Shown here piece after piece: positions 3,186-16,326 of a stretch of 64,000 nt of DNA. Source of the stretch: an uncultured Gemmatimonadaceae bacterium (lineage in GTDB: Bacteria; Gemmatimonadota; Gemmatimonadetes; Gemmatimonadales; Gemmatimonadaceae); NCBI GenBank assembly GCA_963740355.1, contig CAVUDW010000002.1:544001-608000 (forward strand), in the 5' to 3' direction. A model generated the notes under the pieces. It was not told the origin of the DNA. It saw only the letters and a program-made list of their open reading frames with translations, and made no database searches. The translations under genes and the position numbers were made by a program. How positions within the stretch are numbered: the stretch's first letter is position 1; each line of letters begins with the position of its first letter.

Positions 3186-4444
3186 CTAGTCCGTGTAGGT
3201 TACTGCAAGCGCCCAGGGAAGCTTGGAAATGACCCCAAGTAGCGGCAAGCGCTCATGTGGCCACGCCGAAACGCAGGATCGTGCGCATCTGCACGAGGTT
3301 GTACGCGGCGTTCGTGGAGGCGAACACCCTTCGCCCGTGGCGTACCCCCGGTGGTGCAGTTTCCGTAGCCCGCCAATGGTCTTGGCCCACCCGCACACTT
3401 CCTCGACGAGCTTCCGCTTCACCTGACTGATCGCGTAGCCGGCATGGCGCGTCGTGATCATCGATGGCACTCTTGGCCTCGCGGGAATGGAGGTTATGCG
3501 CGACCGGCGGGGTGATGCAACACGCGCGCGTGGCCGCGACAAAGGCTGGACGGTCATAGTTTTTTTCTCCGCTCAGCGTCAATCGTCGCTGCCGGGCGGG
3601 TATGCATGCCGAGCATGGCGACGGCCGCATCCGGTTCCGCGTCGTAGCTTGGCGCGCAGACATCCGTCGCCACGATCAGCCCATGCCGGTTGTCAATCGG
3701 CACACTGCCGAGATCCCCGAGAATTCTCGCCGTCCTGTTGCGCTTGCGAACAAAGGCGCGCCTCGGGAACCGGCATCGACTGATGGCTCGCGCTCGCGCG
3801 CTTTTCCTTCCGGATATTGAACGTCGGATTCTTCGGATCGCCATCCGACGGGAGCGGAGTCGGATCGTCCTACGGCCGCAGACTCTTGCGACTCGCCCAC
3901 TAGTCGAGCAGCATCTCGGAGACGGTGAAGTCCTCGTGCGGGAGCAACCGTCGCTCGTCCGCGGCACGCGGCAATTCCGCCATAAAGGCGTCGGCGATGT
4001 GCCCCGCGATCAGGCGATTCCGATTTCTCCTGAACACCGCCGGGCCCCAAGTGGCGTCATCGGGACTAGTGCCGACGAACCAGCGGAACAGTAGGTTGCA
4101 ATTGAGTTGCTCCATCAGCTGCCGCTCGCTCGGCACGGGAGACGGCACCTGCAGGAGTGGGGCGCGGAGCAAGCGCTCGGGAGGGATCGACGGGCGGCAA
4201 ATCTTCGAGTAGAGCGCCTCGAATTTGGGCGACTGCGCCCCTTAGGATCGGGTTGACGAGCGCATGGATCGTCCGGAGAGGATGGTCGGAGGGAATGCGG
4301 TCTTCGGCCCACACATAGCTGGAAAAGGTCGGCTGCGTCGCGTCGGCCCACTCATGGCTCGGTGCCAGAAAGAGTCGACAACAACTGCTGGAAGCCTCAG
4401 GCCAGCGCGGCGGAAATCGGGCAACTTTTTCAGCAACCTGCTAA
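3186..4444 (-). mobile_element. Degenerate IS5/IS1182-type insertion sequence
   Basis: End sequence TTAG|CAGGTTGCTGAAAAAG (minus strand) at about 4424-4444 plus transposase fragments. The other end near 3186-3210 is only weakly recognisable. Confidence 0.7.
3253..4355 (-). pseudogene. Frameshifted IS5/IS1182-family (DUF772 + DDE) transposase
   Basis: Fragments lie in different frames: EDRIPSDHPLR, SERQLMEQLNCNLLFRWFVG, DNRHGLIVATDV, TTRHAGYAISQVKRKLVEEVCGWAKTIGGLRK, AAYNLVQMR. Several frameshifts and stops. Confidence 0.85.
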
Positions 4445-6219
4445 GACAGTGCTTTTCTGCGATCGAAGAAGTGCCGAAGTAGAATCACTGGTATCGGTTC
4501 GACTCCGAGTGTTTCAGCGCTCAGCTCATGAGTGACTCCATCGAAAACTTGTGCTGAGGGAACTGCAAGAACTAGCCCCGCGTCTTTCAGCTTTTGCTCA
4601 TCCGCATCCCACGCAATCAACAAGTGAATATCCTCGAGATACTTCTTTTCTGTCGCCAGATCCGCGATCAGTGAATCAAGCGAATACTTGAACTCAATAA
4701 GCGTTCTCAGCGGAGCTTGGCCGTCATTCAGGTAGTGCGTGTGAGCATCGTAGCGGTGGCCATATCCAGTCGTCAGCGTTCGGTATCGCGTGAGAATGCC
4801 GGCGCCTATCAACTCGTGAAAAATTGCGGCCACGGCGGCTTCCTGAGCGTCTGGGGCTTTTCCGTAGCGCAACTTCGGCTCCGCAAGGTCGACCAAGCCC
4901 TCTGCTCGCGCCCACTCAGCGGCGATGATGCTCTGCCGTTCCGCCTTCGAGATTTTTGGAGCAGATGGCTCAATTGTTTCGTCACCCTGATATCGCGCAA
5001 TTTCCTCGAACTTCAGGAACATGTCCCTTACCGCAGCCTGAAGCTTTCGCACCTGAGTGTAGTGCAAAGATTTCCGCCCGAGATCAAATTTCAGCTTCTT
5101 TGACTCGACCATGAAGAAGCAGCGCTTGTAGTACGCCGGGTATCTGCCTCCCTCAGGTATTGGGAGACTCATAGCCGTGGGCATTCCCTTCGTGGCAACA
5201 AAGACACCGCTTCTGAAGAGAACGTCGTCACTGCTGGTATCTGTCGGTTCCGGAAGCAGAAGCGTGTCTCGGGACAGGATTTTGAAGGCGTCGTTCTCGG
5301 GGAACATCACGCCATATACGCAAACCTCCCAAGACCCCTCTTTCACTGTTTGCGTGTGCCAAACAGTCTTCGATCCAACAAGCTTCTTTCTAAGTGCTAC
5401 GTCCGACATTGGCACAAAAGCGTTGCGTACGTCTTGGAGAGCAATCCGATTGCTTGTCTTGACGAGAAGATGTGGGGCGTGAAAGTGAGCTTCAGTTGAC
5501 TCCAGAGAGTTTTCGCCTGGTAAGGCCAAGTCAATGTAGGCATCGAACTCAGATAGCGTCTCCGGATCGTACAAGTTCGTGGTTACGCCAACCGCGGTGC
5601 GGGTGCGAATGAGGTACCGTAGCTCGCTCTTGGTCATCGCGAAAAGATTGCGGTCATTCGACGACGGCATAACATGCGATACTGTTATCCGAGAGAACGA
5701 GTTCATCGGATACGCCTTGTCGCAGATAGCAATTGACGCTGGGTAGGCGCGTTCTTCAGAGAAGGGTGCGTAGACTGGGCGGGGAACGCTGGAGTCGTCT
5801 GTTGCGAGCCATTGCTGGGCATTTGCAACCCTTCCGCCAGCTATCGCACTGCCAACGGTACGGCTTTCAATTTCAAATTCGTTTCCTGAAAAGATTGCAT
5901 ACGTCAGTCCGACACCCTTCTCTCCAACCTCCTTCGTGTCACCGTCTTTATCGCCTCCACCAGGTGCTAGTACTTCTTGGATCTTGCTTGCGGGAATTCC
6001 GATACCGTTATCTGTGACTTGAATCAGTGATTTGCTGGCGTCGATCCTTACGTGAACGAAGAAGGGTCCAGTTACGCCGCCGTCCTTCGCACGGGTAATC
6101 GCGTCACGCGAATTCTGGAGCATTTCTGCCAACAGATCCCAGTAGTGGTGGTAGCTGTCCCTAAGGCCGCGAAGTTCTTTCTTGATCGCGCGATCGTTTC
6201 GCTCATTCAGAAAATCCAT
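4441..6219 (-). CDS. GHKL ATPase fused to a C-terminal PD-(D/E)xK-like nuclease; candidate defence protein
   Basis: EMLQNSRDA, TDNGIGI and GEKGVGL motifs; C-terminal QEAAVAAIFHEL...YDA...IEFKY...DIHLLIAWD; GAGGA RBS before the ATG. Confidence 0.8.
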   Translation of the reverse strand: MDFLNERNDRAIKKELRGLRDSYHHYWDLLAEMLQNSRDAITRAKDGGVTGPFFVHVRIDASKSLIQVTDNGIGIPASKIQEVLAPGGGDKDGDTKEVGEKGVGLTYAIFSGNEFEIESRTVGSAIAGGRVANAQQWLATDDSSVPRPVYAPFSEERAYPASIAICDKAYPMNSFSRITVSHVMPSSNDRNLFAMTKSELRYLIRTRTAVGVTTNLYDPETLSEFDAYIDLALPGENSLESTEAHFHAPHLLVKTSNRIALQDVRNAFVPMSDVALRKKLVGSKTVWHTQTVKEGSWEVCVYGVMFPENDAFKILSRDTLLLPEPTDTSSDDVLFRSGVFVATKGMPTAMSLPIPEGGRYPAYYKRCFFMVESKKLKFDLGRKSLHYTQVRKLQAAVRDMFLKFEEIARYQGDETIEPSAPKISKAERQSIIAAEWARAEGLVDLAEPKLRYGKAPDAQEAAVAAIFHELIGAGILTRYRTLTTGYGHRYDAHTHYLNDGQAPLRTLIEFKYSLDSLIADLATEKKYLEDIHLLIAWDADEQKLKDAGLVLAVPSAQVFDGVTHELSAETLGVEPIPVILLRHFFDRRKALS

Positions 6220-6374: not shown

Positions 6375-7496
6375 TCACCCGAGCATCCTAGCCAACGGAA
6401 CGGCGCCGAACGTGCCTATATTGTCACGCGCGCCAACCGCCAGCGCACCAGTGCCTCGGAAGCGAAGGAGCGTCGCCACATGCGCGGAGAAGGGGGGAAG
6501 TACCGCCGCCAGCGCATGCCCGCGCCCAACCAGCGCTCGCACCGTTTGCATCAACGCCGAGCAATCCCCGACCTCGAACGACACCACCTGTCCATCCGCC
6601 CCAAACACAGGCAGACACCCACCGCCATCAGATGAGACAGTCACCCGATCCACTGGCGCCCCCGATTCCCAGTAGATCTCCAGCGCATCCGCCGCCGAAT
6701 ACGCATCCTCGCCGTCCGCGACTGGAAAATCCGTGATGTCGATGTAACACCCGAACTCCTTCACCAACGCGATCGCTTCGTGAAAGAGCGCTTTCCGTCG
6801 ATTCACATGCGTCGGATTGAACACCCGCGGCGGAATCTCCGAGACCGTCAGCGCCTCGCGAATCAGCTCCAGCCCGCGCAGCCCGTCGCCCACGTGCAGG
6901 TGCAGGATCCCCGCCTTGCCCGTCATCAATCCGGCCACGTGTGCATCGGCCGCGATCCGCAGCAGTTCCTGCAGCGTCGGCTGTGATGATCGATGATCCG
7001 AGATCGCCACTTCGCCCACGCCAATGATGCAATCGATGTTCACTATGTCGCTGCGCACCGAGCCGGTGAGCGTCGTCAGCGGCAGGTGATACCCACCGGT
7101 GTGGCACCAGGCATTGATCCCCTGTGCCCGTAGTGCACGCACACCGGCCACCAGTTCGGCGGTGGATCGCGTCACATCGTCGGTGCCCAGCACCCCGACC
7201 ACCGTCGTCACGCCGGCCTTCCGATACGACTCCGCCAGCGGTGCTGGCACCTTCGACGCCGGCCCCGCCTCACCACCACCACCGGTGATGTGGCAATGCC
7301 CATCGATCAGCCCCGGAATCACCCGCCGCCCTTCGAGGTCGATCTCCTCCACACCCAGGTACGGCGGAAACGACGGCCGCTCCGTCCCCATGTAGAGAAT
7401 CGTGCCGCCACCAATCAGGATGTGCTGGTGCCCCAGGTGCTCCGGCGCGTACACATCGCCGTTGAGCAGGAGAGTCATTGAACTCGTCGTCGTCAT
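6375..7496 (-). CDS. iadA: Isoaspartyl dipeptidase (beta-aspartyl peptidase)
   Basis: PGLIDGHCHITGGGGE, GVTTVVGVLGTD, GEVAISDHRSSQP, HVGDG, PTHVNR, SSDGGG; adjacent to cyanophycin genes. Confidence 0.93.
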   Translation of the reverse strand: MTTTSSMTLLLNGDVYAPEHLGHQHILIGGGTILYMGTERPSFPPYLGVEEIDLEGRRVIPGLIDGHCHITGGGGEAGPASKVPAPLAESYRKAGVTTVVGVLGTDDVTRSTAELVAGVRALRAQGINAWCHTGGYHLPLTTLTGSVRSDIVNIDCIIGVGEVAISDHRSSQPTLQELLRIAADAHVAGLMTGKAGILHLHVGDGLRGLELIREALTVSEIPPRVFNPTHVNRRKALFHEAIALVKEFGCYIDITDFPVADGEDAYSAADALEIYWESGAPVDRVTVSSDGGGCLPVFGADGQVVSFEVGDCSALMQTVRALVGRGHALAAVLPPFSAHVATLLRFRGTGALAVGARDNIGTFGAVPLARMLG

Positions 7497-7552
7497 GCGC
7501 CCAAGCCTACCGCTCCCGCCGCGCCGCCACCACCGGCACGAGCGGTCGCTGT

Positions 7553-8011
7553 CGCTTCGCCAGCGCCGTTAACAGCAATGGGGGCGGGAGGCCACGGAGC
7601 TCACGGAGTAGCTCCCGATGCCACCACTCGCGCTTCGCTACCGCCGTTAACAGCGATGGGGGCGGGAGGCCACGGAGCTCACGGAGTAGCTACGGTTGCC
7701 ACCTGCCGTGCAGCGCGATCCATCCTTGACGAGGAAAAGAGGGAACAGCGGAATAGCAGTCCCCGTCAATCTCGATGGCGGCGAAACGCGACGCCTCGTG
7801 AATGGAGCTACTCCGTGAGCTCCGTGGCCTCCCGCCCCCCTGCAGTTCAGGATGCATCGCTCGCGCGTGGAGTCCTCGTGTCCTACCGCCCACCTGCAGT
7901 TCACACTGCCCGCGAAACGCGACGCCTCGTGAATGGAGCTACTCCGTGAGCTCCGTGGCCTCCCGCCCCCCTGCAGTTGACGATGTCTCGCTCGCGCATG
8001 GAGCCCTCGTG
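7553..8011. repeat. Four copies of a 34-bp core (GGGGGCGGGAGGCCACGGAGCTCACGGAGTAGCT), two forward then two inverted
   Basis: Forward copies at 7580-7613 and 7658-7691 (78-bp period); reverse-complement copies at 7806-7839 and 7937-7970 (131-bp period). Confidence 0.92.
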
Positions 8012-8101
8012 CCGGCGCGGATGTAGTCCGGACACAGGCATGCCAACACTAGTCAGCCGCTCCGGCTCCCTGATCTCGCCCGTCCCCCGTACCTTGCGAC
8101 C

Positions 8102-8938
8102 ATGCCGTCTCCAACCAACCGCAAAGGCTGGCTCGTCCCGATCGGCGGGAAACTGACCGACGCCAACATCCTCGCTCGGTTCATCGAGCTCTGTGGGCCA
8201 CGGAATCCGGTCATCGCCATCATCCCCACCGCCTCGGAAGAGTCGGACATGGGGGCGTGGTACGAGAAGCAGTTCGCCAGGCACGGCGTCAAATACGCCC
8301 GCGCCCTCAACTTCCAGCGCCGATCCGACTGCGACGACCGCGACTGGACCGCGCAGCTCGAAGATGCCGACGGCGTATTCATCACCGGCGGCAACCAGCT
8401 CCGGTTGACCACCATCATGGGTGGAACCCCAGCGGCGCAGATCCTCCACGACCGCTTCTACGCCGGAATGCCAGTGGCCGGCACCAGCGCCGGGGCCGCT
8501 GTCATGTCCACCCACATGATCGCCGGCGGCGAGGAAGGCCCAACCCCTCGCGCAGGCATGGTGACGATGGCGCCAGGATTCGGCCTCACCCGCGACTTCA
8601 TCGTCGACCAGCACTTCCGCCAGCGCGACCGACTCGGACGGCTGCTTACCGCGCTGTCCTACAACCCCGCGCTTTTGGGTCTGGGCGTGGACGAAGACAC
8701 CGCCGCCTTCATCAGCCCGGACGACGAAATCGACGTCATGGGCACCAGCGCGGTCACGGTGATCGATACTGCGGATGTGGAGTTCTCCTCCATGCATGCA
8801 GCGGAACCGTACGACACCGTCACGCTGCTCGGCATCAGGATGCACCAACTCGCTGAAGGCGCCGGATTCAACCTCCGCACCCGCAAGGCGCACGGCAAGA
8901 ACGTCGTCACCCTCCAGCACACCGACCCGGCCGCATGA
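8102..8938 (+). CDS. cphB: Cyanophycinase (peptidase S51), no signal peptide
   Basis: LVPIGG, IPTAS, FITGGNQLRL, GTSAGA (catalytic Ser), DQHFRQRDRLGRL, GVDEDTA; ATGA overlap with cphA. Confidence 0.95.
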   Translation: MPSPTNRKGWLVPIGGKLTDANILARFIELCGPRNPVIAIIPTASEESDMGAWYEKQFARHGVKYARALNFQRRSDCDDRDWTAQLEDADGVFITGGNQLRLTTIMGGTPAAQILHDRFYAGMPVAGTSAGAAVMSTHMIAGGEEGPTPRAGMVTMAPGFGLTRDFIVDQHFRQRDRLGRLLTALSYNPALLGLGVDEDTAAFISPDDEIDVMGTSAVTVIDTADVEFSSMHAAEPYDTVTLLGIRMHQLAEGAGFNLRTRKAHGKNVVTLQHTDPAA

Positions 8939-11820
8939 AGATTCTCGATCGCAACGTCTACGTCGGCCCGAGTCACTACGCCCACTTCCCGGTCATCCGG
9001 CTGGAAGTGGACCTCGGCGTGCTCGAGGCCTGGCCGACCATGCGATTGGGACACGGGTTCATCGACGCGCTGGTCGAACGACTCCCCGGCCTGAAGGAAC
9101 ACGGCTGCAGCTACGGTGAGCCCGGTGGATTCATCCGACGCATGACCGAGGACGAAGGCACCTGGCTTGGCCATGTCTTCGAACATGTCGTGATCGAGAT
9201 GCAGAACACCGCCGGTATCGCCGTCACCTTCGGCAAGACCCGTTCTGCCGGCCGTGATGGTGTCTACGACGTGGCGTTCGAATACGAACAGGAAGATGTC
9301 GGGATCGAAGCGGCCGACCTCTCGCTGAATCTGCTGCACTCGTTGCTGCCGGCTGAACTTCGTCCAGACGACTACGACGCCAGCTTCGACTGGGAAGAAA
9401 GTCGTGACACGTTCATTCGGTATGCACAGCGACGCGCGCTCGGCCCGAGCACCGCGTCCATCGTGCACGCCGCCGAGAAGCGCGGCATCCCATGGATCCG
9501 CCTCAACGAGCAGTCGCTGATCCAGCTTGGATACGGCTGCCATCAGCAGCGCATCCAGGCCACCATCACCGGCCGCACGTCGCACATCGCCGTCGAACTG
9601 GCGAGTGACAAGGAAGAAACCAACAAGATCCTCGCCAACCTCGGCCTGCCAGTGCCGAAGCAGCGGCTGGTGCAGACCGCCGAACGGGCCGTGAATGCGG
9701 CGGAACGGATCGGCTTCCCGGTCGTGCTCAAGCCGTACAACGGCAATCATGGTCGCGGCGTCTCGATCAATCTCAGCGACAAGGACGAGATCCGCGAAGC
9801 CTTCGCGCGTGCGCAGGAACACTCGCGCAGCGTGATCGTCGAGACGTTCATCACCGGCCATGACCATCGCATGGTGGTGATCAATGGTGAGCTGGTCGCC
9901 GTCAGCAAGCGTGAGCCAGGCCATGTCGTCGGCGACGGCGAGCACACCATCGAGCAGTTGGTGGCGATCGTGAACTCCGATCCGCGACGCGGCATCGGAC
10001 ACGAGAAGGTGTTGACGCGAATCGAGCTCGATGCACAAGCCACCGGCCTGCTGACCAAGCTTGGCTATACCGCGCAGACGATTCCGCCGAAGGATGAAGT
10101 CGTGTATCTGCGGCTGACCGCTAACCTCAGTACCGGCGGTACAGCCCGCGACATGACCGACCTCGTGCACCCCGACAACGCCGAGATGGCGGTGCGCGCG
10201 ATCAAGGCGATCGGGCTCGACATCGGTGGCGTGGACTTCCTCACGCCGGATATCACGCAGAGCTACAAGGACATCGGCGGAGCGATCTGCGAGATCAACG
10301 CGGCGCCAGGTTTCCGCATGCACATGGCGCCCAGCGACGGGCGCCCGCGCGATGTCGCGGGCAAGACCATCGACATGTTGTTCCCGGCCGGAAGCCCGAG
10401 CACCATTCCGATTGCAGCCATCACCGGCACCAACGGCAAGACGACCACCTCGCGCATGCTGGCGCACATCCACAAGCTGGCTGGCAAGCGTGTCGGATTG
10501 ACCACCACCGACGGCGTGTACGTCGATGGTCAGCGCACTGTAGTGGGCGACATGACGGGTCCTACCGCCGCGCGCATCGTGCTCAGCGATCCGAATGTCG
10601 AAGTGGCAGTGCTGGAGACAGCCCGCGGTGGACTGCTGCGTGCTGGCATGGCGACCCGACACGTGGACGTCGGCGCCGTGCTCAACGTGCGCCCCGATCA
10701 TCTGGGCCAGAAGAACATCGATACCCTCGAGCAACTCGCCGAGATCAAGCGGACGGTGATCGAGATCGCGCGTGATACGGCGGTGTTGAATGCCGATGAT
10801 CCGCTCACGCTCCGCATGGCGGCGTATACCGAGGCGAAGCATGTCTGTTACGTGACGCTGAACCCGGATCACCAGCTGGTGCGCGAGCATATCCGCGCCG
10901 GCGGTCGTGCCATCGCGCTCGAGAATGGCATCAACGGCTCGATGATCACGATCTACGATCACGGTGCCCACATTCCGTTGCTCTGGACGCACCTGATTCC
11001 GGCCACGATCGAAGGCAAGGCGTTGCACAACGTGCAGAACGCGATGTTCGCCGCCGCAATGGCATTTGCGATGGGTGTGCGTCTCGAGGACATCCGGCAC
11101 GGCCTGCGCACCTTCGACACCAGCTTCTTCCAGGCACCGGGACGTCTCAACGTCTACGAGCAGCATCCGTTCCGCGTGTTGTTCGACTACGGTCACAACG
11201 CCGACGCCGTCGAGCAACTCTGTCAGCTGGCGAACCGGCTCGATGTGAAGGGCCGTCGCATCTGCGTGCTCTCGGCGCCAGGCGACCGTCGGGATCAGGA
11301 TATCGTGGCCATCGCTGACGTCGCGGCGGCCGCTGTCTTCGATCACTACATCTGCCGTCGTGACGACAGTCGGCGTGGTCGAAGTGACGACGAAGTGCCG
11401 CGGATGCTCGCCGAGGCGCTGCTCGCACGCGGCATCGGGAAGGACCGCGTCGAGATCGTCGTCGACGAGCAGGAGGCGATCGAGACTGCGCTGCGCAAGG
11501 CAGAACCGGGTGACCTGGTACTGATCTTCGCCGACGCTTTGGCGCGCGGCTGGAAGCAGATCACGCAGTTCAAGCCCGACTTCGACCGCGCGTCACTCGT
11601 CTCGCCGAAGCGGCAGGCGCCGCAGACCATCACCCCCGATGCGATGGAGTTGGCGGACGACAGCGTACCGCCGCCGGCGCCGCCGAAGGTGGTGGTCGAG
11701 GCGCGTCCTGTCGCACCGGCTCGTGTCCCGATCGCGCACACTGATGCTGAAGGGCATGGCTCCACGACCATCGTCAGGGACGATCGCGGCGTGTTTCTCG
11801 CCCGCGAAGCGAACGACTAG
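8935..11820 (+). CDS. cphA: Cyanophycin synthetase CphA1 (N, ATP-grasp and Mur-ligase domains)
   Basis: HGCSYGEPGGF...GHVFEH, LGPST, KPYNGNHGRGV, ANLSTGG, EINAAPGFRMH, TGTNGKTTT, ETARGG, DYGHN. Confidence 0.97.
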   Translation: MKILDRNVYVGPSHYAHFPVIRLEVDLGVLEAWPTMRLGHGFIDALVERLPGLKEHGCSYGEPGGFIRRMTEDEGTWLGHVFEHVVIEMQNTAGIAVTFGKTRSAGRDGVYDVAFEYEQEDVGIEAADLSLNLLHSLLPAELRPDDYDASFDWEESRDTFIRYAQRRALGPSTASIVHAAEKRGIPWIRLNEQSLIQLGYGCHQQRIQATITGRTSHIAVELASDKEETNKILANLGLPVPKQRLVQTAERAVNAAERIGFPVVLKPYNGNHGRGVSINLSDKDEIREAFARAQEHSRSVIVETFITGHDHRMVVINGELVAVSKREPGHVVGDGEHTIEQLVAIVNSDPRRGIGHEKVLTRIELDAQATGLLTKLGYTAQTIPPKDEVVYLRLTANLSTGGTARDMTDLVHPDNAEMAVRAIKAIGLDIGGVDFLTPDITQSYKDIGGAICEINAAPGFRMHMAPSDGRPRDVAGKTIDMLFPAGSPSTIPIAAITGTNGKTTTSRMLAHIHKLAGKRVGLTTTDGVYVDGQRTVVGDMTGPTAARIVLSDPNVEVAVLETARGGLLRAGMATRHVDVGAVLNVRPDHLGQKNIDTLEQLAEIKRTVIEIARDTAVLNADDPLTLRMAAYTEAKHVCYVTLNPDHQLVREHIRAGGRAIALENGINGSMITIYDHGAHIPLLWTHLIPATIEGKALHNVQNAMFAAAMAFAMGVRLEDIRHGLRTFDTSFFQAPGRLNVYEQHPFRVLFDYGHNADAVEQLCQLANRLDVKGRRICVLSAPGDRRDQDIVAIADVAAAAVFDHYICRRDDSRRGRSDDEVPRMLAEALLARGIGKDRVEIVVDEQEAIETALRKAEPGDLVLIFADALARGWKQITQFKPDFDRASLVSPKRQAPQTITPDAMELADDSVPPPAPPKVVVEARPVAPARVPIAHTDAEGHGSTTIVRDDRGVFLAREAND

Positions 11821-11841
11821 TGTTGCAACGCAGGACCTGAT

Positions 11842-13548
11842 ATGACGCGCCCTCCGCGCGAACCGGACCTCGAGTCGGGTTATCCCTCACCGACCATCGT
11901 GGATTCGCGCCGTCTGATGGGCCCCAACCTGATGCACTCAGGGCTGGGTGCTGTGCTCGATGTTTCGCTCGATGATGCTGCAACGGACCACAACGCCGAG
12001 CTGCTGCGTGTGTGGCACGAGCGTGTGTCTGTGCTGGCGGACGCGCTCGATTGGCCTTACGCCGAGACGGTGCAGCGCGTCTACCCGGGGGGCGCGAGCC
12101 TCTTCGTTCACGCGCCGATCGATCAGTTGATGACTGCAACGGAAGTCTGCGAGTCCGCCTGGGTGTATGCGGAATCGCGGCTCGCTGGCGCGGAATCCGC
12201 GAAGCTGACCGACCCCGTTGCGGCATTGAAGGCGTTTTCGCACGCCGAAGCAGTGCGGACGCCAGGCACCCGGCGCAGACTGCTCGAACTCTGGGACGAA
12301 GCGCAGCGGCTCGGATTGAACTGCACCTTTGATGAAACCCACGCCTTCGTCGGGACTGGCGTTGGCGCCACGGGGTGGCTGATCGATGACATCCCACCCA
12401 TCGATTCGATCGACTGGCTGAGCGTACGCGACATCCCGATCGTGCTCGTCACCGGGTCGAACGGCAAGACCACCGTGGTGCGCATGGTGGCGGCGATGGC
12501 GCGCGCTGCCGGTCACACGGTCGGCTACACCTGCACCGATGGTGTCTGGATCGGCGACATGCAGGTCGAAAGTGGCGATTGGTCAGGGCCTGCAGGAGCG
12601 CGTCGGGTGGTTCAGGACCCAGCAGTGACGCTGGCGGTGCTCGAGACGGCTCGCGGTGGCTTGCTGCGGCGTGGACTGGCGGTGCAGCGCGCCTCAGTCG
12701 CTGCGATCGTCACGCTCTCCCCCGACCACTTCGGCGATTATGGCATCAATGACCTAAGGACACTGGCCGAGGCGAAGCTGGTGGTTGGTCGGGCGGTATC
12801 GGAGACCGGGGCGCTGGTCTACAACGCCGAGGTGCCTGCGCTGGTGGAGGCTGTTGCTGGCTATCAGGGTCGCCGCGTGCCGGTGCGCGCCGACGACGGC
12901 GGCCTTTCCCAGGCCGACATCGCGGCGATCCCTGCAACGCTGGGCGGCACGGCACGCCACAACGTGCTCAACGCGGCCTTCGCGTTCGCCATCGCCACGG
13001 AGTTGAAGCTCGGCGAGGCCGCTGTGGGGGCGCTGAAGGTTTTTGGCGCCGGCTCCGCCGACAACATGGGTCGGCTCATGGTGCGGAAGGTTGGTGGCGT
13101 AACGGTCGTGATCGACTACGCCCACAATCCGCAGAGCGTCGCCGCGCTCATCGACGCGACCCGCCAGATTCAGGCGACCCGGCGCGTGATCTCACTCGGC
13201 ACTGGTGGTGACCGGGACGATGTCGCGCTGCACGCAATCGCGAAGGCCGCGTTGGACTCCGGCATCATCGATCGGTACATCGCGAAGGAGATGCCGAAAT
13301 TCCTTCGCGGCCGCGCATCAGGCTCCATCAGCGGTGTTCTGCTCGATGCCCTGCGCCAGCTCGGCGTGCCGAACGAGCGGATGGAAAGTGCACCGGACGA
13401 CATGAGCGCCGTTCGCTCAGCATTGCAGTGGGCGCACAGTGGTGACCTGCTTTTGCTCTCCGTGCATGATCATCGCGACGATGTGCTCGCTCTGATTGCA
13501 AAACTTGCAGAGAACGGCTGGCACGCGGGCGACGATCTCACGGCGTAG
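11842..13548 (+). CDS. CphA-like protein with N and Mur-ligase domains only (no ATP-grasp)
   Basis: DSRRLMGPN N-terminus, then VTGSNGKTT, ETARGGLLRRG, DHFG, DYAHNP and GDRDD. No ATP-grasp motifs; 568 aa. Confidence 0.85.
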   Translation: MTRPPREPDLESGYPSPTIVDSRRLMGPNLMHSGLGAVLDVSLDDAATDHNAELLRVWHERVSVLADALDWPYAETVQRVYPGGASLFVHAPIDQLMTATEVCESAWVYAESRLAGAESAKLTDPVAALKAFSHAEAVRTPGTRRRLLELWDEAQRLGLNCTFDETHAFVGTGVGATGWLIDDIPPIDSIDWLSVRDIPIVLVTGSNGKTTVVRMVAAMARAAGHTVGYTCTDGVWIGDMQVESGDWSGPAGARRVVQDPAVTLAVLETARGGLLRRGLAVQRASVAAIVTLSPDHFGDYGINDLRTLAEAKLVVGRAVSETGALVYNAEVPALVEAVAGYQGRRVPVRADDGGLSQADIAAIPATLGGTARHNVLNAAFAFAIATELKLGEAAVGALKVFGAGSADNMGRLMVRKVGGVTVVIDYAHNPQSVAALIDATRQIQATRRVISLGTGGDRDDVALHAIAKAALDSGIIDRYIAKEMPKFLRGRASGSISGVLLDALRQLGVPNERMESAPDDMSAVRSALQWAHSGDLLLLSVHDHRDDVLALIAKLAENGWHAGDDLTA

Positions 13549-13672
13549 TCGCCCCGCGGAACGCCGTTGATTTCACGCGCATTTCGGCACCGACTTTTGC
13601 CGCTTCGCTGACATGTGCAATCGCGATGTTTTTCGTCTCGCACGAGACTGGTTCGAGACGTAGCTTCGTGCC

Positions 13673-15529
13673 ATGAAAAATGTGATTCTCACACAACTCA
13701 AGGCGCTGCCGTTCGTGGCAGGGCTTCCGGATGCGCAGCTCTGGCGTTTCGCCCAGTCACTCGAGCCGCATTCCTTCGCCACCGATGATGTGTTCTTCAG
13801 CGAAGGCGATGAGCGATCGATGTTCGCGCTGGTCGTAACCGGTGGCGTGGCCATCGAGAAGACTGCAGGTGGCCGTACCACACGCCTCGTCACGATGGGG
13901 CCCGGTGAGGCCATCGGCGAAGGCATCCTGTTGGACGATACGCGCCACGGCACCACGGCTCGCGCCGTGATCGCCGGTGAGCTGCTGATCCTGAGCAAGG
14001 AGAAGCTGGCCGACATCGTGAAGGACAACCCGCATCTGTACGCCGGGCTTGTGAACCGCGCCGCCCGCGCCATCGCCGGTCGCCTGCGGATCGCCGACGC
14101 CACCCTGGTCGGTCGTGGTCGGACCCTCGGTTTTGGCAGTCGTCGCATGCGCGTCGAACACGATCTGCTTGGGGAGCGGGAAGTGCCGGACGAAGCGCTC
14201 TATGGGGTGCAGACGCTGCGCGCGGCCGAGAATTTCCCGATCACCGGCGTGCCGCTCCGCGAGTTTCCTGAGATCATCGTCGCGTTAGCTGCGGTCAAGA
14301 TCGCTGCCGCTGAAGCCAATCGAGAACTCGGCCTGCTGCCCGACAACGTGGCGGACGCCATCGTGCGTGCGGGCGAGGAGATTCGCGCTGGACGGCACCA
14401 CGAACACTTCATCGTGGACATGATCCAGGGGGGTGCCGGCACCAGCACCAACATGAATGCGAACGAGGTGATCGCGAATCGCGCTCTCGAGATCCTCGGC
14501 CGGTCGCGTGGGACCTATGACGTCGTGCACCCGAACGAACATGTCAATCGCAGCCAGAGCACGAACGACGTGTATCCGACATCGATTCGCATCGCGCTTC
14601 ACATGGCACTCGATGTCCTGCGCGATTCGCTGAAGGATCTGTGCGGCGCGATGGATGCGAAGGCGGTCGAGTTCAGTGACCTGATCAAGATGGGCCGCAC
14701 CCAGCTGCAGGACGCGGTGCCGATGACGCTCGGTCGTGAATTCAAGGCGTGGGCACACACGCTGATGGAAGACGTCGATCGCCTTGGCGAAGCACAGGCG
14801 CTGATGCGCGAGATGAACATGGGCGCGACCGCGATCGGCACCGGCATCACGGCTTCGGAGGAATTCACCGTGTCGGTGCGCAAGCACCTGTCGGAAGTGA
14901 CCGGGCTGGTGATGATCACGGCGCCCGACCTGATCGAGGCCACCAGCGACACCGGTGCTTTCGTGCAGCTGAGTGGCGTGTTGAAGCGCACGGCCACCAA
15001 GCTCTCGAAGATCTGCAACGACCTGCGTTTGCTCAGCTCTGGCCCGCGCGCTGGCTTCGGCGAGATCAACCTGCCGGCCATGCAACCCGGTAGCAGCATC
15101 ATGCCGGGCAAGGTGAATCCGGTCATCCCTGAAGTCGTCAATCAGGTGTGCTTCAACATCATCGGCGGCGATGTCACGGTGACGATGGCGGCCGAGGCAG
15201 GGCAGCTGCAGCTCAACGTCTTCGAGCCGATCATCGCCTACAAGCTGCTGGGCGGCATCCACGAGCTGACGCACGCCATCCAGGTTCTGAAGGACAAGTG
15301 CATCGTCGGCATCACGGCCAATGCCGACCGCATGCGGTACTACGTCGAGCATTCCATCGGCGTCGTCACCGCGTTGTTGCCGGTGATCGGCTACGAGAAG
15401 GCGACCGGTGTGGCCAAGGAAGCGCTGGCGACGGGCCGGGGCGTGACCGAGATCGTGCTCGAGCGCGGGTGGCTGACGCGTGAGCAGCTCGATGACGTGC
15501 TGCGTCCGGAGTCGATGGCGGGACGGTAG
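13673..15529 (+). CDS. aspA: Aspartate ammonia-lyase with an N-terminal cNMP-binding (Crp-type) domain
   Basis: Residues ~1-150 are cNMP-like (FSEGD, VVTGGVAI, GPGEAIGE). They are followed by RVEHDLLGE, YGVQTLRA, QGGAGTSTNMNANE, GRTQLQDA and GSSIMPGKVNP. Confidence 0.92.
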   Translation: MKNVILTQLKALPFVAGLPDAQLWRFAQSLEPHSFATDDVFFSEGDERSMFALVVTGGVAIEKTAGGRTTRLVTMGPGEAIGEGILLDDTRHGTTARAVIAGELLILSKEKLADIVKDNPHLYAGLVNRAARAIAGRLRIADATLVGRGRTLGFGSRRMRVEHDLLGEREVPDEALYGVQTLRAAENFPITGVPLREFPEIIVALAAVKIAAAEANRELGLLPDNVADAIVRAGEEIRAGRHHEHFIVDMIQGGAGTSTNMNANEVIANRALEILGRSRGTYDVVHPNEHVNRSQSTNDVYPTSIRIALHMALDVLRDSLKDLCGAMDAKAVEFSDLIKMGRTQLQDAVPMTLGREFKAWAHTLMEDVDRLGEAQALMREMNMGATAIGTGITASEEFTVSVRKHLSEVTGLVMITAPDLIEATSDTGAFVQLSGVLKRTATKLSKICNDLRLLSSGPRAGFGEINLPAMQPGSSIMPGKVNPVIPEVVNQVCFNIIGGDVTVTMAAEAGQLQLNVFEPIIAYKLLGGIHELTHAIQVLKDKCIVGITANADRMRYYVEHSIGVVTALLPVIGYEKATGVAKEALATGRGVTEIVLERGWLTREQLDDVLRPESMAGR

Positions 15530-15540
15530 CCATACCTGGC

Positions 15541-15581
15541 CATCTGTACTATCTGACTAGTCCGGTCAGCTAGTACAGATG
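15541..15581. terminator. Hairpin between convergent aspA and vapC
   Basis: CATCTGTACTA...TAGTACAGATG inverted repeat with an inner CTGAC/GTCAG pair. Confidence 0.6.
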
Positions 15582-15603
15582 TTCAGGAAACATCGACCGT
15601 CGG

Positions 15604-15990
15604 TCACCATGCCTCGAGCTCGAGGCCGATAATGTCGGAGAAGTCGCTCGCGTTCATGGTCACGAGCCTTGCGCGATGTACGATTGCCTGTGCGGCGATC
15701 ATCCGATCCAGCAGCTTCCTTCGCGAATAGCCCGCCTGCGCCACGATGGCACTGTGCGCGGCTGCGGCGGAATCATCGAATGCCAGCACAGGAACCGCAG
15801 CAAGGATCGCGTCCAGTCGGGCGCGGCGAATCGGTGCATCTGCCGGATGGCGGTACACACCCCCTTCAAGTTCGACGCGCGTCACGATCGACATCACGAT
15901 CGCGTCGTCCAGCGCCGCGATGCGCGACGCGATTGTCTGGTCGCCATCGCGCAGTTGAATGGCGATGTTCGTGTCGATCATGCATGCCAT
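15604..15990 (-). CDS. vapC: PIN-domain toxin
   Basis: MIDTN, SIVTRVEL, DRMIAAQA, LVTMNASDF; 128 aa, downstream of the antitoxin. Confidence 0.92.
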   Translation of the reverse strand: MACMIDTNIAIQLRDGDQTIASRIAALDDAIVMSIVTRVELEGGVYRHPADAPIRRARLDAILAAVPVLAFDDSAAAAHSAIVAQAGYSRRKLLDRMIAAQAIVHRARLVTMNASDFSDIIGLELEAW

Positions 15991-15993
15991 GGC

Positions 15994-16233
15994 TCAGAGG
16001 CCACTGCGTTCAGGAATACCCTCGTCATCCCGCTCATCACGCTCCGTGACCGCGGGCAATGCCGCCAGACGTGCGAGCATCTCCGGAATCGTTGTCGCGG
16101 CCGGGTAGATGGTCATGACGTCGCCGGATCGGACCAAAATCAGTTCGACGTCATCGCCGAACGCCACGTCTTTCGGCAGCCGAATCGCCTCGCTGTTCCC
16201 GCTACGAAATGTGCGACTACGCGCGATGCTCAT
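15994..16233 (-). CDS. vapB: AbrB/MazE-fold antitoxin
   Basis: FRSGNSEAIRLPK motif; ATG at 16233 with a GGAG RBS. Confidence 0.9.
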   Translation of the reverse strand: MSIARSRTFRSGNSEAIRLPKDVAFGDDVELILVRSGDVMTIYPAATTIPEMLARLAALPAVTERDERDDEGIPERSGL

Positions 16234-16251
16234 CGAAGGACTCCAAGTTGG

Positions 16252-16265
16252 ATATACAAGTATAT
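16252..16265. promoter_or_regulatory. Probable VapBC autoregulatory operator
   Basis: Perfect palindrome ATATAC-AA-GTATAT in an AT-rich patch just upstream of vapB. Confidence 0.65.
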
Positions 16266-16326
16266 ACATTGAGTAGTGCCTGACCGCAACCGCGAAATGT
16301 CACGCCGGTGAATCGACCTCCCCCGG

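Follow-up and report, generated by a model that had tools for sequence, protein, structure and literature searches.

A CphA paralog lacking the ATP-grasp domain, encoded next to cyanophycin synthetase in an uncultured Gemmatimonadaceae bacterium, represents a widespread third type of CphA protein

In current descriptions, cyanophycin is synthesized by a single enzyme, CphA1, and CphA2 is a recycling variant of cyanobacteria. Here we describe a third CphA-type protein, besides CphA1 and CphA2, that is widespread among bacteria. It was found in a stretch of 64,000 nucleotides (hereafter the window) from an uncultured Gemmatimonadaceae bacterium (contig CAVUDW010000002.1, positions 544,001 to 608,000), in which its gene lies at 11842..13548 on the + strand and encodes 568 amino acids plus a stop codon. 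This protein, P0001, was characterized from the list of open reading frames (ORFs), matches to Pfam and NCBIfam, and an AlphaFold2 model, according to which it is CphA1 minus the ATP-grasp (G) domain, with its N domain and Mur ligase-type (M) domain keeping their mutual placement. We propose, with about as much confidence as doubt, that it is an active ATP-dependent side-chain ligase working in trans on the polymer of the CphA1 encoded just upstream. That such a protein stands beside one particular clade of CphA1 in six or more phyla would mean that the pathway contains an unstudied step or partner.

The nearest stop codon upstream of the P0001 ATG is only seven codons away (open frame, 575 amino acids), and an AGGA motif lies about 10 nucleotides 5' of the start. 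P0001 matches Mur_ligase_M (PF08245) at residues 203–336 with 50.5 bits (cut-off 24) and Mur_ligase_C (PF02875) at residues 411–539 with 55.6 bits (cut-off 28.4), both above the Pfam gathering scores, and thus belongs to the Mur ligase superfamily. The upstream neighbour (8935..11820, +) is a full-length CphA1 of 961 amino acids with all N, G and M active-site motifs (TIGR02068, 1140.4 bits, cut-off 850). Whereas this neighbour matches eight ATP-grasp-type families in Pfam, P0001 matches none at E ≤ 0.01, nor does it match Cyanophycin_syn. Its best NCBIfam model is TIGR02068 (cyanophycin synthetase), at 277.7 bits against the same cut-off of 850, and the match is confined to the M-domain part of the model; the PRK14016 score (249.1 against 877 bits) likewise places P0001 outside the whole-protein CphA1 family. 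The peptidoglycan MurE models, TIGR01085 and NF001124 among them, score 64.3 against 257.3 bits and 72.1 against 476 bits, and neither Pfam nor NCBIfam has a model for the N region or for the protein as a whole. By BLASTP, residues 198–539 are 34% identical to residues 491–864 of the neighbouring CphA1 (E 5e-42), and in a sequence search of solved structures the five best matches of P0001 are all CphA1 chains (E 1e-48 to 1e-41), with MurE next at 1e-9. An identity with MurC–F, the grouping that the original prediction for this gene had regarded as incompatible with a CphA paralog, was rejected on the NCBIfam scores and on the M-domain tree. The idea of a split CphA1, to which P0001 would supply a missing M domain, was also rejected, because the M domain of the neighbour is intact.

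Four parts can be distinguished in P0001, all on the + strand. Structure matches and conservation delimit a CphA-type N domain at residues 1–145 (11842..12276), of which residues 1–17 are disordered. It is followed at residues 146–197 (12277..12432) by the start of the G domain, which is retained, and a linker to M, as judged from hhalign and secondary structure. The M core spans residues 198–409 (12433..13068; BLASTP and alignments, with residue roles from PMC9427784), and the M lid, corresponding to Mur_ligase_C, spans residues 410–568 (13069..13545; Pfam and alignments). The retained start of the G domain comprises one helix and three short strands. In profile–profile alignment with hhalign, residues 144–174 (...EAQRLGLNCTFDETH--AFVGTGV) pair with CphA1 170–202 (...AAEKRGIPWIRLNEQSLIQLGYGC) with a probability of 74% and an E value of 2.9e-5, which is the value for that single comparison. 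The join proposed by eye between EAQRLGL...FVGTG and the CphA equivalent AAEKRGI...QLGYG is therefore real. The P-loop strand IPIVLVTGSNGKTT starts at residue 198, and about 285 residues of CphA1 (about 203–487), the ATP-grasp fold proper, are without a counterpart. The original prediction of a CphA paralog without the ATP-grasp domain is thus borne out, both by the absence of ATP-grasp families in Pfam and by alignments that jump from about residue 202 to about residue 488 of CphA1; its label of a mirror image of CphA2 also holds, since P0001 has N and M and no G.

The AlphaFold2 model of P0001, built from 44 homologs, has a mean predicted local distance difference test (pLDDT) score of 91.2 and a predicted template modelling (pTM) score of 0.90. 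Its best Foldseek match is CphA1 7wae_A (E 3.4e-30; template modelling score 0.78 on the query). In VIA-align, residues 16–409 of the model (N plus M core) superpose on residues 1–724 of 7wae_C with a Z score of 34.3 and a root-mean-square deviation of 2.8 Å over 381 residues. Alignment with CphA1 structures had been suggested as a check on the original prediction, and residues 17–558 indeed superpose on residues 1–872 of SuCphA1 7lgq_A (Z 28.9) over 527 of the 568 residues, with the G domain skipped. The best structural match outside CphA is MurE, at Z 23.7.

In sequence, the N domain resembles that of CphA1 weakly: hhalign aligns the first two strands only (residues 18–43 with 2–27, E 0.0044 and 0.023). 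Because the profile comparison of the N region gave only this weak local match, the assignment of the N domain rests on structure. Residues 1–197, folded separately from 17 cross-phylum sequences, gave a pLDDT of 87.9. Among 48,161 representative structures, two chains reach Z ≥ 8 against this fold and both are CphA: CphA2 7ta5_A (Z 10.3, 168 residues) and A. baylyi CphA1 7lgm_A (Z 9.0, 167 residues, 18–197 against 2–484). Of the 15 best-listed Foldseek matches, 14 are chains of CphA1 or CphA2 (E 5e-5 to 1.2e-2) and one is a designed protein, 8fg6_B (E 1.1e-2). On these predicted folds, a CphA-type N domain is present in P0001. Its family-conserved motifs are SRRL(M/T)GPN and APxDxLxxATE, and R23, R24, G27, G84, A91, P92, D94 and L96 are invariant in the 17 sequences, which are 29–40% identical and come from across phyla.

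In CphA1, a Cx19HxxEH zinc site turns the N domain into a primer-generating endopeptidase (PMC9262961; papers are cited here by PMC number, from excerpts of their text). The neighbouring CphA1 has this site (C58, H80, E83 and H84). In P0001 there is neither an HxxEH motif nor a matching cysteine, as had been predicted, and HxxEH is absent from the first 200 amino acids of all 70 full-length representatives of the short paralog. The prediction that the Mur ligase motifs are intact was likewise confirmed. The ATP/Mg contacts of the TeCphA1 M domain, N497, K499, T500, T522, E558, F692, R731 and H748 (PMC9427784), correspond in the HMMER alignment to N207, K209, T210, T232, E268, H373, R411 and H428 of P0001, respectively. 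Six of these eight residues are invariant in the 44 homologs, T232 is replaced by serine only, and at least 90% of the homologs retain H373; at the F692 position, non-cyanobacterial CphA1s have histidine as well. The landmarks of the M core are thus the P-loop G205–T211, T232, E268, D295–H296, K312, N328 and H373, and those of the M lid are R411, D425, H428–N429, G456-D-R458-D-D460, K482–E483 and R489-G-R491. When 69 short paralogs were compared with 27 CphA1 M domains (L031_S2 and L027_Cph having been dropped), 49 alignment columns proved to be at least 90% conserved in both sets, including the P-loop, E268, D295–H296, K312, N328, R411, D425, H428–N429, G456, R458, D460, R489 and R491. The P-loop motif G[ST]NGK[TS] is kept in 68 of the 70 full-length representatives. 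Judging from these residues, the ligase machinery of P0001 looks competent.

The M-domain differences of the short family from CphA1 are few and lie in regions where substrates are read. The GDRRD[EQ]D motif of CphA1 is GDRDD in the first of two types of short paralog distinguished here (S1, to which P0001 belongs) and GDRTD in the second (S2), and RxDDxxRGR is replaced by KEMxxxLRGR. N408 stands for CphA1 A734 and H542 for D867; R277 is invariant in the short family and variable in CphA1. A different donor, or an acceptor that is more acidic and under-decorated, would fit the altered lid motifs and the additional invariant arginines (R23, R24, R277 and often R317).

The short family is large. 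A word-indexed search returned many proteins of 537–632 amino acids with the same two Pfam domains, several of them from Gemmatimonadaceae; in databases, the short relatives are named "Mur ligase family protein", "hypothetical protein" or "cyanophycin synthetase". With a profile of the N region alone, 881 representatives were matched at E ≤ 0.001, of which 641 reached ≤ 1e-10 and 250 reached ≤ 1e-30. Among the best 150 matches, 69 are 550–670 amino acids long, 80 are shorter (mostly fragments at contig ends) and one has 757 amino acids; none has the length of CphA1. The protein of 757 amino acids, P0184, is a family member with an insertion of about 190 residues inside the N domain, which by eye looks like a DUF559 or Vsr-like endonuclease domain.

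Among species-representative genomes, the S1 type was found in 21 loci, from Bacteroidota (Polaribacter), Acidobacteriota, Planctomycetota, Myxococcota, Gemmatimonadota, and Gamma- and Betaproteobacteria (Lysobacter, Luteimonas, Steroidobacteraceae and, in loci L010 and L019, Rubrivivax). Cultured strains with a homolog include Lysobacter sp. Root916, Luteimonas lutimaris and Plesiocystis pacifica (L008, L017 and L024). Two of the 21 loci (L013 and L019) are on contigs too short to judge. All of the 19 informative loci, from six phyla, contain CphA1, in keeping with the expectation that the gene would be conserved beside cphA. In 17 of the 19, cphA1 lies just upstream on the same strand, and in two (L005 and L015) the genes are convergent; cyanophycinase adjoins cphA1 in 16. 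The sister type S2, in which the N region is shorter (ELRVLDGPN...), also adjoins cphA1, mostly in convergent orientation. Its six loci (L020, L022, L023, L025, L026 and L029) are from Chloroflexota, Thermomicrobiota, Actinomycetota, Methylomirabilota and one alphaproteobacterium (Thermohalobaculum), and the partner CphA1s form a clade of their own.

The same association was found within the phylum of the window. In 201 Gemmatimonadota genomes, the short N domain is present in 48 (E ≤ 1e-5) and a CphA1-like G domain in 61 (E ≤ 1e-30), and all 48 genomes with the former have the latter; as the genomes are related, these counts describe a pattern and are not a statistical test. In 46 of the 48, both matches are on the same contig and strand, the short gene following the G-domain match by 1.3–4.1 kb, and in the other two they are on different contigs. 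Of the 13 genomes with a G domain and no short N domain, 10 have more distant CphA1s (46–55% identity) and three have 31–36% matches in frames of 585–652 amino acids, whereas all G domains at least 64% identical to that of the window's CphA1 come with a short paralog. Two genomes (G019:C4:18426-23995 and G183:C28:25915-32036) carry a second, more distant cphA1, with 50–51% G-domain identity, in the locus of cphA1 and the short gene. In a Gemmatimonadales metagenome-assembled genome (MAG; locus L032), cphA1 and the short paralog are both split over several frames, as pseudogenes or through long-read frameshift errors.

A tree of M domains was obtained by a quick IQ-TREE search of 99 rows, with the genome's own MurE-like protein as outgroup and with supports from the Shimodaira–Hasegawa-like approximate likelihood ratio test (SH-aLRT) only; the partial matches L010 and L015 (CphA1) and L032 had been dropped before this tree and the identity counts given below. 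S1 forms one group (63 rows, SH-aLRT 99) with S2 as its sister (six of seven rows), the two together comprising 69 rows (98), and the CphA1 M domains are separate (26 rows, 86). S1 and the partner CphA1s branch in roughly the same way. The seventh S2-like row, L031 from a Sarcina sp. MAG, is on a long branch with the CphA1s of Bacillota. Its frame of 548 amino acids (L031:7499-9143) encodes a CphA N-terminus, followed by a VQIGYG stub and an M domain, without ATP-grasp, and there is no full cphA1 in the 9.8-kb locus; it may represent an independent loss of the G domain.

In CphA1, a chain with a bare C-terminal aspartate sits between the N domain and the M core, and at the M site ATP activates the beta-carboxylate and arginine is added (PMC9427784). 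P0001 cannot extend the backbone, because it has no ATP-grasp domain; it keeps the cleft and the chemistry residues of CphA1, and is therefore read here as a side-chain ligase that acts in trans. The N domain and the M core of P0001 keep the rigid arrangement that, in CphA1, forms the cyanophycin-holding cleft at the M active site. In that cleft, P0001 would phosphorylate the free beta-carboxylate of a backbone aspartate and then ligate an amino acid through its alpha-amino group, arginine being our default assumption and a different specificity being conceivable. The acceptor would be cyanophycin or poly-Asp, and the enzyme would finish, fill in or re-decorate chains without making them.

As a tentative generalization, many non-cyanobacterial cyanophycin systems could be two-enzyme systems, in which CphA1 builds the chain and the G-less paralog is a free-standing side-chain ligase with a specificity of its own. 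If so, a non-arginine residue would be installed or bare poly-Asp stretches re-decorated, the natural polymer would depart from the textbook Asp-Arg polymer in its composition or solubility, and turnover of the side chains would not require a new backbone. Such a ligase could explain natural variation in polymer composition and might be a direct tool for tailored cyanophycins in materials and nitrogen recovery. The question of P0001 function is directly testable with existing CphA1 assays.

Several observations weigh against P0001 as an active side-chain ligase for the CphA1 product. The M domain of the neighbouring CphA1 is intact, so that a second arginine ligase looks redundant; C58, H80, E83, H84, K502 and E561 are invariant in 18 CphA1s that are partnered by the short paralog. 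The M domain of the short paralog is also the faster evolving of the two, with a median pairwise identity of 42% against 67% for CphA1 (136 pairs from 17 genomes); in none of the 136 pairs is it the more conserved, and it evolves about twice as fast. N739, D789 and D810, invariant or nearly so in CphA1, and the GDRRD motif (now GDRDD) are not kept in the short paralogs. E607 of SuCphA1 contacts polymer bound at the N-domain site (PMC9262961), and the equivalent position is mostly arginine in the short family (R317 in P0001). Furthermore, the subclade of the window is without a hairpin-rich M-core segment of about 45 residues (CphA1 637–683), with variable low-complexity inserts in its place. 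This segment, which the NxDD strand precedes and the HN motif follows, is kept by CphA1 and by more distant family members. Its loss, seen in relatives 59–87% identical to P0001 (22 rows of alignment A1), maps to a clade of 23 rows (SH-aLRT 99) whose sister, P0079, retains the segment; because the catalytic residues stay invariant within the clade, we read the loss as tolerated trimming and not as decay. Finally, according to two reviews (PMC8560796 and PMC11362209), the two cphA homologs of R. eutropha H16 yielded no cyanophycin; the second of these could be of the G-less type.

It is possible, if doubtful, that P0001 is an active ligase whose job differs from that of the CphA1 M domain: it might add a non-arginine residue (Lys, Orn, Cit or Glu) and so change the solubility of the polymer, or, as variants to which we give the same limited credence, act on undecorated poly-Asp runs, or make or recharge small beta-Asp-X peptides and primers. 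The changes specific to the family are found where Mur ligases read their substrates (GDRDD/GDRTD, KEMxxxLRGR, R277, N408 and the arginine at the E607 position), in the N domain, R23 and R24 are invariant at positions that are hydrophobic in CphA1, and Lys, Orn, Cit and canavanine are known substrates of CphA1 enzymes (PMC8560796). However, these changes cannot be tied to specificity, the arginine-binding residues of CphA1 being undefined in the excerpts of the literature consulted, and retention of the whole N domain favours a polymer over a small-molecule acceptor. A structural or regulatory partner of CphA1 seems unlikely. Such a protein would become part of CphA1 oligomers or use its N/M cleft to bind the granule or polymer, and it is equally unlikely, in our estimate, that it alters primer use, chain length or activity with ATP binding serving regulation and not ligation. 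The tight operon linkage would be expected of a partner, as would strict co-occurrence with a single CphA1 clade (G domains of at least 64% identity are all paired, and the 10 at 46–55% are not), and a partner would fit the roughly parallel trees, a sequence evolution faster than that of the enzyme CphA1, and the loss of the M-core segment in the window's subclade; since the CphA2 dimer interface uses the G and M domains (PMC10273328), the M domain of P0001 could in principle dock on the G domain of CphA1. Parallel trees, however, follow from joint inheritance alone, and the retention across phyla of K312 and of the ATP, Mg and gamma-phosphate residues would be unexpected in a mere scaffold.

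The remaining alternative is that P0001 has no role in cyanophycin metabolism, being a decaying cphA1 duplicate or an ordinary peptidoglycan MurE-type ligase. The names of PGAP (Prokaryotic Genome Annotation Pipeline) style, "Mur ligase family protein" or "hypothetical protein", suggest as much, and both the G domain and the M-core segment have been lost. We consider this highly improbable, as it is already contradicted by conservation: the frame is intact, the family is old and monophyletic (SH-aLRT 99 for S1 and 98 for S1 with S2) and has 250 representatives at E ≤ 1e-30, and the catalytic residues are conserved and mostly invariant. As to MurE, its models reach 72 bits against a cut-off of 476, and a separate MurE-like gene is present elsewhere in the genome.

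In the window, the short gene is the third of an operon in the order cyanophycinase, cphA1, short gene. The cyanophycinase (Peptidase_S51, PF03575, E 6e-22; 278 amino acids) is encoded at 8102..8938 (+), its stop overlapping the start of cphA1 by 4 nucleotides, and the cphA1 stop lies 21 nucleotides before the ATG of P0001. No terminator-like site was seen on the + strand; a promoter scan of 7300–16300, which is uninformative for this phylum, gave no sigma-70-like sites. Divergent from the operon is a gene for an isoaspartyl dipeptidase (IadA-like) at 6375..7496 (-), whose TIGR01975 score of 325.6 bits is just below the cut-off of 331.25. Beginning 124 nucleotides downstream of P0001, at 13673..15529 (+), is a gene for an aspartate ammonia-lyase with an N-terminal cyclic-nucleotide-binding domain (PF00027 at 33–118, PF00206 at 167–498; NF008909, 728.7 bits). 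No AspA match was found in 20 related loci (L001–L019 and L032), and this fusion, or its position, may be special to the lineage. By its gene content, the locus joins synthesis, depolymerization, dipeptide cleavage and aspartate deamination. Its G+C content is even (62–67%), and the host genome has one copy of each cphA-type gene, in addition to a distant MurE-like gene at another place. An ORF of 339 amino acids at 7901–8920 (-) was rejected as a gene, as it is an antisense shadow of the cyanophycinase gene and belongs to no family; it still gives tblastn matches of 30–44% in other loci, a trap in high-G+C DNA. Beside the cyanophycin locus, in a stretch of lower G+C content (52–58%), a gene at 4441–6219 (-) encodes a protein of 592 amino acids with an N-terminal GHKL ATPase domain (HATPase_c_3) and weak sacsin- or HSP90-like NCBIfam matches.

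Adames et al. (2013) reportedly described a second cphA homolog (cphA') in beta-proteobacteria such as R. eutropha H16. Like the gene described here, cphA' is a second cphA-like gene beside cphA, and Rubrivivax, a beta-proteobacterium, carries the short type; cphA' could be the same thing as the G-less paralog. The supplement of PMC5178258 gives cphA1 and cphA2 locus tags without lengths. In excerpts of the full-text literature, including PMC10206079, PMC9262961, PMC9427784, PMC10273328, PMC8560796 and PMC11915815, we found no description of a G-less CphA.

Among well-characterized proteins, CphA1 (TIGR02068/PRK14016; PDB 7LG5, 7LGQ, 7WAE, 7LGM and 7LGN) has in common with P0001 the N fold, the M core and the M lid, the relative placement of N and M (Z 28.9–34.3), the same ATP/Mg residues and the same operon. 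Unlike CphA1, P0001 has only the first 50 or so residues of the G domain, is without the zinc site, carries altered M-lid motifs and falls in a separate clade, at about 278 bits where membership requires 850. With MurE and the other Mur ligases (MurC, MurD, MurF and FolC), P0001 shares the P-loop, the Mg-binding glutamate, the DH motif and the DxAHNP motif. It is, however, without their UDP-MurNAc-binding N domain, it is far below the cut-offs of the NCBIfam Mur models, and its model matches them with structural Z scores of 20–24, against 29–34 for CphA1. Like P0001, CphA2 (PDB 7TA5, 8FXH and 8FXI) is a CphA reduced to a single catalytic domain, and its N domain has no zinc site either (PMC9262961 and PMC10273328); its chain 7ta5_A is the structure that best matches the N region taken by itself. 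The reduction is the opposite one in the two proteins: in CphA2 the G domain is active and the M domain is truncated and inactive, whereas P0001 has a complete M domain with its P-loop and no G domain.

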